A stretch of DNA of 64,000 nt from positions 41,974,001 to 42,038,000 of the forward strand of contig OX597823.1 in NCBI GenBank assembly GCA_951406725.2, in the 5' to 3' direction. The position numbers and the translations under genes were made by a program. A model generated the notes under the pieces. The model saw nothing but the letters and a program-made list of their open reading frames with translations, ran no database searches and was not told the DNA's origin. Shown here piece after piece: positions 5,702 through 58,221 of this stretch. The DNA comes from Octopus vulgaris (lineage: Eukaryota). How positions within the stretch are numbered: position 1 is the stretch's first letter; the number at the start of each line of letters is the position of its first letter.

Positions 5702-6044
5702 TATTGTAAGATTCAAATAAGATGACAATTTATTTTTGAACACAAAAATGCTATTAGAACAGCAGAATTATTGGGTAACAAAGTGGAAAAATTTGTCAAC
5801 AAACAGCTATAATTGTGCATTTAGCTTTATAGCATCTAAAATTGCAGATTAATTTGTCAGTGGGAAGTTTAGCTTAATGGTAAAGCACTTGACCAGAGTC
5901 CTCAAGCGATGTGCATTCAAGTCTCATGGCTGTTTGTTCACAAATTTTTCAGCTTTGTAAGCGTAATTTACCCAATATTTCTGCTGTTCTAACACCATTT
6001 CTGTGGTCAAAAATGAATTATCATCTTATTAGTATCTTACAATA
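5702..6044. mobile_element. Fold-back (MITE-like) element, arms 5702-5807 and 5929-6044, with a tRNA-like loop
   Basis: Arms are diverged reverse complements. The spacer has tagcttaatggtaaagcac (A-box-like) and gcattcaagtc (B-box-like). It sits next to (TA)n. Confidence 0.65.
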
Positions 6045-6419: not shown

Positions 6420-6935
6420 TATTCAAACAGTTATCTGGAGCTGTTGGAAACTGTGGTCAAGCCCTGGCTAGGGTGGTCGTTGCTGTCATCTTTGTGGCAG
6501 CAGCATTTGGCTCCTTGCCATGTCTCTAAAAAGAGACAGTAGTGGTGTTTGGAGAATTTCTATTGCTTTACCAGCCCCAATTTCTAGTTCCTTTGATTCT
6601 AAATCTCATGGATTACTATGTATTGGGCACAGTTTTGGGAGACAGCAAATGCTCTGCCTGCCACACCAAGGCTGAGCTGGTGTCCAAGGAGATATTCAAA
6701 CTTCTCCCCACGACACAGTGAGAAATACATGTACCATGTCCTAGAGCTGTTTTGAGGCTATGTTGGAAGCTGAGGGTGGCTACACTGAGGTGGCTACTTT
6801 GAGTAAATCAAATCATAATGTAATATCATAATGTAATCAACATTTTATTTTTTAAAATACTTTTATTTTTGTATGGCATATTGTGTTTTCTTTTATGTTT
6901 ATGCAAACTGTTCTATTTAGCCCAAATATACTGCG
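6420..6935 (+). pseudogene. Tc1/mariner-superfamily (DD37D/maT-like) transposase C-terminal remnant
   Basis: Translates as YLELLETVVKPWL...WQQHLAPCHVSKKRQ*WCLENFYCFTSPNF...MDYYVLG...TKAELV...CFEAMLEAEGGY, matching WQQDSAPCH / SPDxNPMDYYVWG / EAEGGYIE of this family. Confidence 0.8.
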
Positions 6936-23915: not shown

Positions 23916-24617
23916 ATAAAATCATCATCATCATCGTATAACATCTGCCTTTCATGCTGGCATGGGTGAGCATATATATATGTCTGTATGTAAATAAAAT
24001 ATGGAAGATACTGAATTTGAATGATGTATCTCTGTAAACCATAAAGCCTGGCAAAACATTACACTAAAGTGCTAGCACAACTCTTGACTACTCATTATTT
24101 AAATACAAAAATACATATATACATGCGTCCGTATAGAGAGAGTGTATATGGTTGCTTATGCCAGAATAAACGGGCTCCAAGTTGTCTTCTGAAGATAATG
24201 TACAGTATATAGTTGCATGAAGGTACTTATGTATTGTGGTTAATGTATATTGATGTTATGTTTCTTTATATGGTTTTATGGGATATTGTCTTTTTATATT
24301 TCATTTTCAATTTGGTTTGCAAAATTCTTGATGCAAAATCAGGCATTGCAACATCAGTGACATGCCCTTTTTAGATAGAACTGGAGTAGCAAGGAATGGC
24401 ATTAAGGAGGTTAAGAATGATGGTGAAATGACTCCACTGGACCTAGCTTATTGATTGATTAACTGAATGATAAATCAAATGATCAAACAGTTAATTGGTT
24501 AAATGGTTAATGAGTTGTAGAGCAAGATAATATTACAAACAGAGGATATTGCTTGTATAATGGTGATATTTACAAGTAGAGTAGACAAGGAAATAGGCAC
24601 ACACATATTCATACACT

Positions 24618-40636: not shown

Positions 40637-41684
40637 CATACATATACTCATTTCTGTAAAAATAAATGCAGCAAGGAGTAAGGCAAAGATGTCAGAGCAG
40701 CTTACGTTAAAGTAATATTTAGTTCCTTCGTTTTGCATTCACTCTTCAAGTCCCAGCAGTGTCAACTCATTCCTTTCATCCTTGCCACATAAACAGAAGC
40801 AGAACAGCTGAACATAATCCAAAATTTAATATAGACCCTAATACAAAATAATACTGAAGTTTCAAAACATGCTCAGAATGCTTTTATCATTTTGAAATAC
40901 ACAATATCTCAGATTCAATTATTATGTTTAGAATAAAGCTGCAAAGGTTTACAAATGGACCTTCAAAATCTATGGAGCTGAAAACATAGGAATGTATTTC
41001 TTAAGGTTTCATAAAATAGAAATAAAAATGAATCTGGGTCCAGTAATGGTTGTAATTAGATCTGTGTATCACAGAATGCCTTATGAGCAACTGTCACATT
41101 TCATATATGTGTGTATGTGTGGAAGGGTCTGTGTTTAAGAAGTTTGCACAAGAACCATGTAGTTAGACGTTCAGTCTTTACTGTAGGAATGCTGTTCACA
41201 CAGTTTTCTATTACTGTAACTTCAGAATAATTGATACTTTCTGAATGAGATTGGGAGACAGAAACTGAAGAAACAATCATGAACTCACTCTCACCTTTCT
41301 TAACTAATTAAATAATGGCTTCCTAGTGCAAAAGACACACTTCTTATTGGTATTTTCTTATCATCTATGTATGTATGTATATATATATATATGTAATTGA
41401 ACCTTGGGAGAGACATTATGCTGGTAATAATAAACACATGCACTGTTTCAGTCCTCTACTGTTATTGTTTGTTAATGGGTTAGTTATTTAGTTATTCCTC
41501 TGACAAATTTATCAATCAGACATTTTCTTTTACTAGTTGCTTTGTATGTATATATATATATATATATATACACATATATACAGAGTAAGAGAGAGAGAGA
41601 TTTGGTGATGTAATCAGAAAAATAGAACTCAGACAATAAGTATATATTAGTATATATTATTGTTATTGTTATTAGTATTATTGA

Positions 41685-52880: not shown

Positions 52881-53727
52881 GTATGAAAAGTTTCTTCAGT
52901 TTCCATCAGGTAAATCTGCTGTCAAGACTTTGATTGGCTTGGGGCAATTGTAGAAGACACCTACCCATGGCATCACAAGGTGGAACTGAACTCAAAACCA
53001 TGTGGTCAGAAAGTAATCTTCATAACCACACAGCTACACCTGCTTTTATAGTTTAGAAAAGTATCCCATTAATAGATGTTTGTCAAGATCTACCAATCTT
53101 CACACTGCAGTGTAACAAAATGTCTATGTAACATTGTATCGACTATGACATAAACCACAAAAGACGGTAATATCTAGAATAAAAGACATGGACCCCTCAG
53201 AGAATTGGACTGTTATTGAAGATATTCTATTGGAAAGATGACATGAAAATAGGTTGTCAGACATATTTTATTGTCTTCTCTAGAAGAACGGTAAGATGAA
53301 TCTCCAGAAGCCATGTTTCATTCCCCCATCCTTGCCATATTTAATAAGCAAGCATAATATGTAATATCATATTTTGCAATGTATCGCAGTTTTATGGTAG
53401 TTTATAGTTTCTATGACTAAAATATTTTAGGAGTGCCAATATTTTCTGGTACTGAAATTTCTGTGAAGTTGGCATTATTCATGGGTGCAAGGAAACCTAT
53501 GTGGTTAGCACATTCACGTCACAAACAATTCATTCCAGGTTCAATTCCATTGAGTATTTCCTTAGGCAAATGTCTTAGATCATAGATGTATGTCAATGAA
53601 TGCTTTGTGAATGAATAATATTTGGTGATTAGATTAGTAGTGTGTGCATGTGTGTGTGTGTTTTTGTATAAGCATGTGCATTAAAAGGATCAACGGTCCT
53701 TCCTGACCCAGATTCTGTAGTGTATAC

Positions 53728-53769
<42 letters not shown>

Positions 53770-53774
<5 letters not shown>

Positions 53775-53950
53775 CCACTGGACGGGAAGTCAGGTTATCA
53801 TAGAATTGCTCACATTTGCCAGCTGAGTAAAATGGAGTAATGTGAAATGAAGTGTTTTGCTCAAGAGCACAAAATATTGGCTGGACCAGGATTCAAAACC
53901 ACAATCTTATATTTGTGAGTGTAACACCCTGACCACTAAGCCACGCACTT
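53770..53950 (-). mobile_element. SINE family D-like, degraded
   Basis: aagtgttttgctcaagagcacaa...ggattcaaaaccac...gaccactaagccacgc. Confidence 0.6.
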
Positions 53951-54517
53951 CCATAAGCATATACATACATGAGAGAGAGAAAGAGAGAGAAATAGAGAGA
54001 AAGAGAGAGAGGACTGCCAGAGAAGACAGTGGAGCCTGTGGCGGTCTTCAACCCCATCAGATACTGTCAAGCCATCCAACCCATATCAGCATAAAACACG
54101 AACATTAAATGAGGATTATGATGATGATAATGAATATACTTTTATAATATTTTCTTGGCGAAGTATATTACTTTTACTGAGTTAGAGATGACTCACCATT
54201 TGATGAATAAAATCAATGCTACAGAGACCATGTCTCCAGTATGTCTTCAGTATTTTCATAGTTTAAACAAAATATATAATTAACTTCTCGGGAAAATATT
54301 ACAAAAATCTATGAAATTAGAAATGTAAATGAAATATACTGAAATTCATGAGACTTAGCGAGTGCATAAAGTATTTATGCAATTATTATATAACTCATTT
54401 GGTTTGACATCTTGTATTTAAAAAAATATTTAATAAAATGCTTTCTTTTAGTCAGGATATCAATAGATACTAGTCAGCAGTATTTGCACTTAAATATTTT
54501 TGTTCTAGGAACTAAAT

Positions 54518-54561
<44 letters not shown>

Positions 54562-54786
54562 ACACGCATCCACATACATAGACAGACAGACAGACAGGCA
54601 GTCAGATAGATATGGATAAGTAATGAGTGACGAATGGATTAGTTCCCGTTACATATATTGCATGATCTACAACTGTTTCAACAACAAGCAGATGACAAAT
54701 CTTACATTTTGTATATAAACACGGATGAGGAAAATGATTTTGTCATTCCTGTTATGTAATGTATATTATATAAATATCTTCTGCAG

Positions 54787-54821
<35 letters not shown>

Positions 54822-54931
54822 CATCTGTGGACACTGCTCATGGACCTGCCTTTGCCATATCGGACTTGTCAGTCATGAGCGTGCATGCACGCGATGTGGA
54901 CAGCCTTCCTGATCTTAGCCGAGCCATGATG

Positions 54932-54983
<52 letters not shown>

Positions 54984-55472
54984 ACTCACATACACAATAT
55001 ATATTTTATCTTTTACTTGTTTAAGCCATTAGACTGCAGCTATGCTGAGGCACCATCTTGAAGAAGCTTTAGCCAAATGAATTAACCCCCATTACTTATT
55101 TTCTTTTTTTAAGCCTGGCACTTATTCTGTCGGTCTCATTTGCTGAACTGCTAGGTTACAGGGTCGTGAACACACACCAGCGCCAATTGTCAAGTTATGA
55201 TCGAAGACAAACACAGGCATAAAAACTTACACACACACATACATATTTTCGTGTGTTGATACTTATCAAACTTTTCATAAGTGCCAATGCATGAAATTCT
55301 TGAACTTTGGGTTACTCTGTTGGTTTGGCTAAATATTAATGAAAATATATATATATTAATATTTTGAGTTTGATTTTTCCTGTTTGCACCAACATGCCTA
55401 TATATATATAAATATTATGGAGATGTACTTGCATAGCAAGTGATTTGATCTGAGATTGTGGGCTGAAACGAA

Positions 55473-55703
55473 AACAATTGCTGCGTGGAAGGTGTTTGTA
55501 AGCCATTTAAGAAACACACAAAAGCCGTTCGATTCACTTCAACATTTAAGTTTAATTTGTCAAAATATTTTTGTCGCTAAAATCCGCGACCTGTTCACTG
55601 ACAAAAATTCGTGCTGAGATGCAGCACGGATTTTTGTCAGTGAACAGGTTGTGGATTTTGTGTTTTTTAAATGGCTTACAAACACCTTCCACACTGCAAT
55701 TGT

Positions 55704-55704
<1 letters not shown>
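55473..55704. repeat. Fold-back element containing a hammerhead-topology motif (55556-55605, minus strand)
   Basis: Outer arms acaattgc...gtaagccatttaa / ttaaatggcttac...gcaattgt. Inner arms aaaatccgcgacctgttcactgacaaaaattcgtgctg / cagcacggatttttgtcagtgaacaggttgtggatttt. Confidence 0.85.
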
Positions 55705-55737
<33 letters not shown>

Positions 55738-56099
55738 TATATGTGTGTATATATATATATGTATATAAATATATATATATAATGGGTTTCTTTCAGTTTT
55801 CATCCACCAAATCTACTCACAAGGCTTTGGTTGATCCGAGGCGAGGCTATAGTAGAAGTCACTTACTGAATGAAGGTGGATTTGGTTGCCTTGTGAGTGG
55901 ATTTGGTAGACGGAAACTGAAAGAAACCCGGGTTTGATCAGCCCAGGATTATAGTAGGAGACACATGCGCAAGGTGCCACACAGTGGGACTGAACCCAAA
56001 GTAGTATAGCTGGAAAGCAAGCTTCTTACCATTTGCAGTGATCATGATCATGTCTTTAGAGAAAGTCTGATCTCACACACCATTCTTTCTGAAATATTA

Positions 56100-56520
56100 A
56101 TTATTTTGTTTCTATATTTCTTTTGAAATGCACTACCTTTGTTTCAATTAATTTCAAACTAAATGAAGAATTAAAATAACTTTATCATTATTAATTTGGT
56201 TTTGGAACATAAATTAACATGATATTTTAATGGAAGCTTTTAATTCACGTCACTTTAAAACAAGAAGATTGTAACATCGAACTAGGGCAGTCTCAAGTGA
56301 CTTGGTATCAACCTTTCTGTTACCATATTTCTGTTGAAATAAAACTGCCTTTCTTTCAATTGATTTTGAAAATATGAAGAATTTAGTAAAATAATTTTGT
56401 CATTAAGTCGGTATTTCGGACATAAATTAATACCTAAAAGTTTTAAGTGAGGTCACGTTGAAGTATGAAGTTTCTGTCATGAAACTGAAGGCAGTTTCAG
56501 ACAGCTTAATATCAAAAGGG
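56100..56520. mobile_element. Two tandem copies of a ~210 bp piggyBac-type MITE
   Basis: Shared atatttct.ttgaaat...aatgaagaatt...acataaattaa...tatcaa. The second copy ends tatcaaaaggg followed by ttac (decayed TTAA). Confidence 0.6.
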
Positions 56521-57338
56521 TTACGCAAGCTCCTTTATTGAAACAAAAATATAATTTAGTCCAGTCAGCCTAAATCTGGTCCAGTATGTGTGTGTGTGTG
56601 TATGTGTGTGTATTTCTGTGTATGGGTGCTTATTATATCAAGAAGTGACCGTGAACTCAGAGTTTCACTCCAAGCTTGCTGTTCACAACTCTGATGCCAT
56701 CAAAAATTTCCTAGTCCTGAGTAAAACTCTGAGTAGACTGTTAACATTTGTTATAACAAACACATCTACCCATTCTACCTAGCTTACTGAGTTTCTGCAT
56801 CAGAAAAATCATTGGAGCTTTGGACAAAATACTAACTTCTTCCAGCACTTTACCTTCTGAGTTCAAGTTCCACCAAGGTTCACTTTGTCTGACATTTTTT
56901 GGGGGGTTGATAAAATAAATATAATTTGAACAGTGGGGTTGATGTAATTACTTAATCTCCTTCAACTAACATTGCTGGCATTGAGCCTAATTTTGAAACC
57001 ATTATTATTATCACTATCATTATCATTATTGCTGCCATAGTACCTTAAAAACACAACTTCTAATTCAGTCACTAAGTTTAGCCAAGTTTAGCTTAGATGG
57101 ATTAGATGGATGATCACATGGAAACCTAGGTGCCATAAGCAAAAACCTTTAAAAAGCAGCAATAATGTTAACTTATTGATACGTCTTCTAGCTTTGCTTT
57201 CTGAATTCAAATTCCACCAAAGTTGACTTTGCCTTTTAGGGATGATAAAATAAATACCAGTTGAGCACTTTGGCTGATATATTCAACTAACTACCTTGCC
57301 CCAAAATTTCAAGCCTTATGCCTACAGTAGAAAGAAAG

Positions 57339-57755
57339 GCTTGGCTGTCTGGTACAAAGTTTGTTTTCAAACTGCATGGTTCCAGCTTCAGTCCCATAGC
57401 ATGGCACCTTTGACAAATATTTTCTTCTACAGCCTTGGCTCAATCAAATCCTTGTGAGTGGATGGAAACTGAAAGAAGCCTGATATATATATGTATATGT
57501 GTGTGGGTGCACATGTGTATGTGTCTGTGTATGTGCATGTGTGTATATGTCTTTGTGCTCGTCCCCCATCAATGCTTGGCAACCAGTGCTGGTTCATTTA
57601 GATACCAGTAACTTAATGGTTTGGCATAAGAGACTGACGGAATACATGGCAGGCTTTAAAAACTAATTACTGGGGTTGATTTGTTCACCTGAAACCCTTG
57701 AAGGTGGTGGCCCAGCATGACCAAAGTCCAACGACTGAGATTAGTATAAGATAAA
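57339..57755 (+). mobile_element. SINE family A, older copy, preceded by family C copies at 56820 and 57190
   Basis: ttggctgtctggt...gcttcagtccc...ggaaactgaaagaagcc...ccagcatgacc. Confidence 0.8.
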
Positions 57756-58221
57756 ATATTTAATTTTTGATTCTATAATGTTTATTCTGTTTTCTTGCGC
57801 AACAACTGCTGAAGAAGACTTATACCAATCGGAATGAAAAAATTTTTAAACAAAATCTTTCGCATGTTCATTTGTATTTCCTCTGGATAATTATTTGCTC
57901 AAAAGTTGGAAAGACAACAAAAACAAACAAAAATACAGTTGACTAAAATCAAATTTTAAAATAAAATGTATGAAAACATGAGCAAAAAATAAAACAAAAC
58001 AAAACGGCAGCATGTGTTTCGTGGTTGAAAATTTATAAAGAGACAAGCATTATTTTACTTAGATGTGAATGATTTCAATTTTAGAGATTCTCCGTATTTC
58101 ATATCATCATGTTATCTGTACCCAGTTTCCTGTTCTTCTTTTGATATCTCGCTGTCTCACATGAAATCTGCTTTCAAATGCTAATTCACACTTTCAAGTC
58201 CAAAGCTGCTCTGACAGCTCG

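Follow-up and report, generated by a model that had tools for sequence, protein, structure and literature searches.

Does a fold-back element of the octopus genome carry a natural hammerhead ribozyme in which the two bases of a tertiary core pair have changed places? The element lies in a window of 64,000 nt of Octopus vulgaris DNA (assembly GCA_951406725.2, contig OX597823.1, positions 41,974,001 to 42,038,000, forward strand), and its minus strand reads as a hammerhead with G3-C8 instead of C3-G8. Window coordinates are given below as plain numbers, and statements about published systems refer to excerpts of the cited papers.

The hammerhead motif of the window copy

From its sequence, its folding and the state of its family, the motif at positions 55605-55556 (minus strand) is read as a minimal type I hammerhead with a G3-C8 core and, in this copy, a G12A change; the parse in the initial annotation was correct letter for letter. 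Along the minus strand, the 5' strand of stem I (55605-55599) is followed by the core GUGAACA (hammerhead positions 3 to 9; 55598-55592, with G3 at 55598 and C8 at 55593), an extra G ahead of G10.1 (55591), the two strands of stem II (55590-55586 paired with 55577-55573), AAAA at the position of GAAA (55572-55569), the stem III palindrome AAUAUU (55569-55564), U17 (55563), and the 3' strand of stem I (55562-55556). Topology and hammerhead numbering predict that cleavage would occur 3' of U17, in a UUU triplet (55562..55563, minus strand). The UUU triplet is a weak hammerhead cleavage site.

When the isolated 50 nt were folded, stems I and II formed (z of -4.3, with 0 of 200 shuffles as good) and stem III was absent from the monomer; when two natural copies were co-folded, the AAUAUU helix was not the minimum-energy form, an outcome that favors neither the presence nor the absence of the dimer. 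The palindromic stem III of the initial annotation is thus present as a palindrome but does not form as a helix in the monomer fold. A search of positions 53000-58000, which covered the window copy with its G12A, returned 39 Rfam matches (E of 5 or less), with no hammerhead family among them. Position 12 is where this copy fails the hammerhead core letters, and G12A makes a full-length hammerhead about a millionfold slower (PMC2553840). In the fold of the whole element (-129.4 kcal/mol; z of -17.9), the core is buried by a long hairpin that includes the opposite arm. Because of G12A, compounded by this burial, the window copy is probably dead, and we predict it to be inactive. The reading of AAAA as CpG-type decay of GAAA is upheld, but this decay is not unique to the window copy, since AAAA recurs in about a dozen of some 60 arms.

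By its sequence, the window element is a short head-to-head copy of a pseudo-LTR (pLTR) of a Penelope-like element (PLE), inserted in a TA run. Its long arm (55414..55616, minus strand) contains, from the centre outward, the hammerhead, a spacer, the ORF start, and a tail, and it matches the pLTRs of parent copies L402, L404, and L405 at 93 to 95% (with copy L051 as the query). The first 31 codons of the parent ORF (55414..55506, minus strand; start codon at 55506-55504) were recognized by translation and by the same peptide opening the L405 ORF. The inverted short arm (55617..55704, plus strand) runs from the usual 5' end to the short 3' end; both this end and the long one of the copies, which form two clusters, correspond to stopping points within the start of the parent ORF. 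The core had been described as repeated in the opposite arm, and it is indeed kept there (55640-55646; 2 matches versus 0.03 expected), but the 3' half of the motif (i.e., the 3' strand of stem II, GAAA, and the 3' strand of stem I) was lost by internal deletion. The target flanks, to which no strand is assigned, are TA rich on the left (55400..55413) and (TA)n on the right (55705..55781). Inverted copies of this kind oppose the motif to its own complement, so that a dimer in cis is impossible.

The motif resides in the pLTRs of an endonuclease-bearing PLE

The 3' part of the short copies translates without a stop, and the resulting peptide is common to related families. A profile of this peptide matched 8 proteins at an E value of 0.001 or less, the best being an octopus gene model that runs on into a longer frame; the continuation of this model had 98 matches in the genome, and 16 stretches were fetched. 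L402 and L405 have a pLTR-ORF-pLTR structure in which the repeat is the 208-nt unit and the ORF opens with the peptide. In L402, two identical motifs stand 4,261 nt apart, and the repeats differ at 4 of 326 nt. In another copy, L401, an open frame of 1,025 residues encodes a YVDD motif, a CxxxCxxC linker, and a GIY-YIG domain (25.4 bits against a Pfam cut-off of 22.6); Pfam RVT_1 had no match in this ORF, and the RT assignment comes from the YVDD motif and from homologues named as RT-domain proteins. Judged by these domains and repeats, the parent is an endonuclease-bearing (EN+) Penelope-like retroelement, and the proposed pLTR location is confirmed by the position of the motif within the direct repeats flanking the RT/GIY-YIG ORF in L402 and L405. 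A wholly unbroken ORF was absent among the fetched parent copies of this family (family A). Identity reaches at least 94% for about 40 of the 150 RT segments that were scored, which, together with the few differences between the L402 repeats, suggests that the family was recently active.

Copies are single or head-to-head, often within TA runs, and both an optional 3' tail and inverted 5'-shortened copies are present. Among 196 arms, a sample biased toward arms with the core, 127 5' ends fell in the first 10 nt and 1 at the predicted cut site, and the 3' ends included 79 short and 103 long ones, the long end being also the end of the query. These copies would most likely originate from transcription of the parent through both pLTRs. 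The two motifs of such a tandem transcript, spaced as in L402, may pair via AAUAUU and cut slowly as a dimer. As suggested by the copy ends and by analogy with the Anolis Poseidon element PAc, the RT would start at two points in the ORF start and extend back to a constant 5' end that lies a short way upstream of the motif; the copies would be inserted into TA runs, often with the addition of an inverted 5'-shortened second arm.

Directly before the usual 5' end, the parent shows a word resembling a branch point, then a pyrimidine run and AG (L402:2195-2222 and 6456-6483). Ahead of this AG, the parent base is T or C in 47 cases, in 40 of which the short copy carries G instead; either splicing or a G derived from the cap could be the source, and a splice donor matching the 5' letters of the copies was not found. 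Two other leads toward a parent were rejected. A search by the GIY-YIG family yielded no member among the 30 fetched loci (of 150 scored), one of which held a nested fragment, and in 8 old copies a shared stretch continuing for more than 1 kb past the tail lacked any PLE ORF match; this stretch more plausibly represents a host element into which the copy had inserted. Family A copies are also nested in larger noncoding elements (L330-L337; L124:935-1372), one of which was amplified after the insertion and one of which has 13-bp terminal inverted repeats. An old head-to-head relative (L022:2400-2645) has both arms starting near the predicted cut site; it is a single case, and when the L022 fragment was used for DNA and pattern searches, nothing but the fragment itself was recovered. 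At L040:1458-1600, contigs of two runs that we guess to be RNA (X8 and X17) have many A>G and T>C differences, as expected from A-to-I editing of a fold-back RNA; contigs of a third run do not.

G3-C8 is the state of family A

A 22-mer spanning stem II through stem I occurs at 6,531 places in the 2.8-Gb genome (control, 0). CUGANGA is found upstream of this block at only 3 places, 1 of them in register, so that a CUGANGA search misses the family, as had been anticipated. Exact 19-mers with G3-C8 occur at 5,888 places, compared with 223 for G8, 144 for A8 or U8, and 182 for a base other than G at position 3. C3 was absent among 100 listed G8 copies, and canonical C3-G8 was absent among 100 listed non-G3 copies. 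In an unbiased sample of 30 arms picked regardless of their core, 26 were readable in register: 22 have GUGAACA, 24 have both G3 and C8, and 2 have G3/G8. The oldest recognized subfamily is likewise mostly G3-C8, the youngest copies have C8, and in contigs of three runs labelled as three organisms, neither G3 nor C8 varies at a level of 3% or higher. GAAA predominates, and AAAA is the minority form. The genome counts and the unbiased arms thus confirm GUGAACA and GCGAC-GAAA as the consensus.

The family state retains the other core letters of a hammerhead (U4, G5, A6, A9, G10.1-C11.1, G12, A13, A14, A15.1-U16.1, and H17) and the type I order of stems I and II around the core. Literal C3 and G8 are replaced, and a Watson-Crick pair between G3 and C8 is still possible. 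Inspection indicates that loop II was altered several times within family A while the stems and core were not.

The minority with a mismatched pair deserves separate attention. G3/G8 occurs at 223 places versus about 16 for a comparable G3-to-C change, which is more than 10-fold above mutation noise, and it is scattered across middle-aged subfamilies, requiring at least five changes on a tree of 61 arms. It is also present in the RT-bearing older copies L403, L417, and L420. Unlike G3/G8, C3/C8 has no spread lineage.

Homologous families carry four types of 3:8 pair

A pattern excluding family A matched 139 places (16 in the control). Hand sorting of 79 motif matches gave families B (13), C (19), and D (38), with 9 dropped (3 belonging to family A and 6 without a convincing stem II). 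The commonest 3:8 state is G3-C8 in family B (9/13), C3-G8 in family C (11/19), and U3-G8 in family D (24/38). This pattern left stem II, positions 3 and 8, and the extra G unconstrained and prescribed U4, G5, A6, A9, and GAAA, so that constancy at the latter is not evidence. Family E, found via the peptide alone, has U3-A8 in 17 of the 21 arms counted (28 found), and the canonical CUGAUGA core is also present in family C copies found via the 3' region alone.

The 3' regions of these families align without the motif, with 0 of 500 shuffles as good for A-B (z of 21.8), A-C (6.6), B-C (5.7), E-A (10.6), and E-C (10.5) and 1 of 500 for C-D; the A-D (4/500) and B-D (35/500) alignments are weak and unconvincing alone. 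Per-copy profile searches between A and C or D are also weak, so that homology rests on the family-level alignments and the shared peptide. In a tree of the 3' block (27 rows), A and B are set apart from C, D, and E with support of 98/98, and one long-branch D row falls with A and B. If C-G was the ancestral state, this split implies a single origin of G3-C8.

In a hand-picked alignment of 40 distinct rows, the 3:8 pair is possible in 39, with four pair types, and two pairs of stem II change on both sides. The alignment tool misaligned stem I in the 8 family E rows; by eye, this family has a different, 3-bp stem I. The 3:8 base pair has thus been kept in evolution as four types in five homologous families, with the minority G3/G8 lineage as the exception. 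Taken with the two-sided changes in stem II, these states favor a compensated swap with a single origin. Stem covariation, on which the initial annotation had staked its interpretation, is therefore found between families for stem II and for 3:8, and was not seen within family A. Between-family changes, family state, and pLTR location all support its proposal, at the level of sequence, of a natural G3-C8 hammerhead variant.

Comparison with known hammerheads and PLEs

The octopus motif shares with the hammerheads of the pLTRs in metazoan PLEs (Cervera and de la Pena 2014, PMC4209133) the type I order, the place in the pLTR, an extra base between 9 and 10.1 (typical of PLE hammerheads), G10.1-C11.1, a short palindromic stem III, and the presence of many solo and opposite-strand copies. 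It differs in its G3-C8, the parts of that paper covered here describing C3-G8 and U3-A8 only, and in its extra base, which is G in the octopus family and H in the published consensus. The Schistosoma Cercyon PLEs, with U3-A8, show a comparable two-sided change at the 3:8 tertiary pair (PMC4209133; PMC3088659), and U3-A8 is the only natural 3:8 covariant named in the excerpt of PMC3088659. The Cercyon state also occurs in octopus family E and in a separate Neptune-like family. C-G can change to U-A via a U-G wobble, whereas reaching G-C from C-G takes two transversions and passes through a mismatch.

PAc (PMC11167929) resembles the octopus family in having a hammerhead near the ORF start and two 3' ends within the ORF start (the tail), and the two 3' ends of the octopus copies match the two RT start sites shown for PAc. 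The tail is about 60 nt long in the octopus family and 30 to 40 nt long in PAc, and the start of the ORF lies some 55 nt past the motif in the former and within stem II in the latter. G3-C8, the natural family state in octopus, is in PAc a laboratory mutant: a single C3G or G8C change abolishes cutting, and the C3G/G8C double mutant partly restores it (PMC11167929). The parent shares with the Neptune/Nematis EN+ PLEs (PMC8557442) the RT, the CxxxCxxC linker, the C-terminal GIY-YIG, insertion into microsatellites, and inverted 5'-shortened copies; the cysteine linker makes it a candidate for this clade. Animal non-LTR retrozymes (PMC7229834; bioRxiv 10.64898/2026.07.22.740005) are likewise short noncoding hammerhead copies related to pLTRs, but the octopus copies consist of pLTR pieces, single or inverted, whose coding parent resides in the same genome, rather than of tandem arrays.

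A metagenome pattern scan gave 54 matches, none with the stems and the triplet together, which we read as chance. The literature searched contained G3-C8 as a laboratory variant only and no natural example; Lunse et al. 2016, reportedly a survey of small PLE hammerhead variants, as well as supplements and repeat libraries, could already report one.

Is cutting retained?

We consider descent of the motif from a hammerhead close to certain. The best explanation, to which we assign a probability of roughly 60%, is that a minimal type I hammerhead with G3-C8 extends across the two related families A and B through a compensated change that kept the 3:8 pair and that the family may still cut slowly. 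In this explanation, the flip probably preserved tertiary pairing at 3:8, which would leave the family motif able to cut slowly, probably as a dimer of both repeats in one tandem transcript. That selection acted on the pair, that some cleavage persists, and that dimers are used are inferences; taken singly, retention of the pair by selection is quite probable, and present-day cutting by the family A motif is predicted at somewhat less than even odds. That the swap is a single evolutionary event counts against this explanation, as does the weakness of the UUU site.

According to a rather unlikely alternative, the motif is a relic that needs no cutting; the fold may have been retained for its part in RT binding, splicing, or RNA stability, with positions 3 and 8 fixed by drift or for the fold alone. 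Both the mismatched G3/G8 lineage and a young sister PLE have spread. Of 23 copies of this sister element, whose stem I has also changed, 21 have the core CUGAUGC (i.e., A9C); these elements can thus spread with a damaged core. Its copies (L410, L412, and L433-L436; e.g., G000:C9:33144500-33154499) have open frames of 1,311 to 1,312 residues. G6 in some E and A copies and copy 5' ends that do not mark the cut site point in the same direction, as do published data: cleavage is dispensable for PAc insertion in vitro, and PAc RNA-seq has no ends at the cleavage site (PMC11167929), and Naiads have spread while lacking canonical hammerheads (PMC8557442). Cleavage by minimal PLE hammerheads is poor even in the dimer (PMC4209133). 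However, the states of all five families at 3:8 can pair (G-C twice, C-G, U-G, and U-A), and this pair is important for the active hammerhead conformation (PMC3088659). The C8 of the youngest family A copies and the repeated changes in loop II, with stems and core spared, also argue against a relic.

It is far less probable that G3 was favored first for a role at the DNA or promoter level and that C8 then repaired the pair. G3 creates TCAGT, presumably an initiator-like word; the G3/G8 lineage spread and C3/C8 did not, and a few copies (L052 and L033) begin at or near TCAGT. Most copies start about 20 nt further upstream, however, as is evident from the 127 of 196 arms counted above. Moreover, G8 copies fall within groups of C8 copies, and G3-C8 is already present in family B, which makes G3/G8 look more like a reversion than an intermediate. 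A fold-back DNA transposon (MITE) with a hammerhead shape by chance, as the long inverted arms, the TA flanks, and the lack of an Rfam hammerhead match might suggest, is refuted by L402 and L405, parent structures in which the unit is a direct repeat around an RT/GIY-YIG ORF, and is further contradicted by single-arm copies, unequal ends, variable centres, and the canonical CUGAUGA core in homologous families, including copies found via the 3' region alone.

The family exposes a blind spot in searches with CUGANGA-based descriptors. The natural G3-C8 family stands beside homologous C-G, U-G, U-A, G/G, and A9C families, a ready panel for the question of whether Penelope-like elements need hammerheads to cut. 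More tentatively, and at somewhat less than even odds, one PLE clade in one genome may represent a natural experiment on 3:8, comprising C-G, U-G, U-A, and, in thousands of copies, an active G-C reached via a mismatched step. Hammerheads with G3-C8 would then form a functional natural class missed by CUGANGA searches, and some PLE families scored as hammerhead-less would in fact carry one.

Other hammerhead-bearing elements

Family E is a very abundant short element, with 26,962 first-look candidates (L338-L375). Its parent was not found; long open frames at family E copies were considered as a coding parent and proved to be microsatellite read-through. Unrelated Neptune-like PLEs (L103, L105, L106, L120, L127:5383, and L135:1367) carry U3-A8 motifs downstream of the endonuclease, and one of them has two ORFs, the second of 781 residues. 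The window itself also contains decayed pieces of family D at 24370-24523 (plus strand) and 41371-41490 (minus strand), the first with a worn hammerhead relic.
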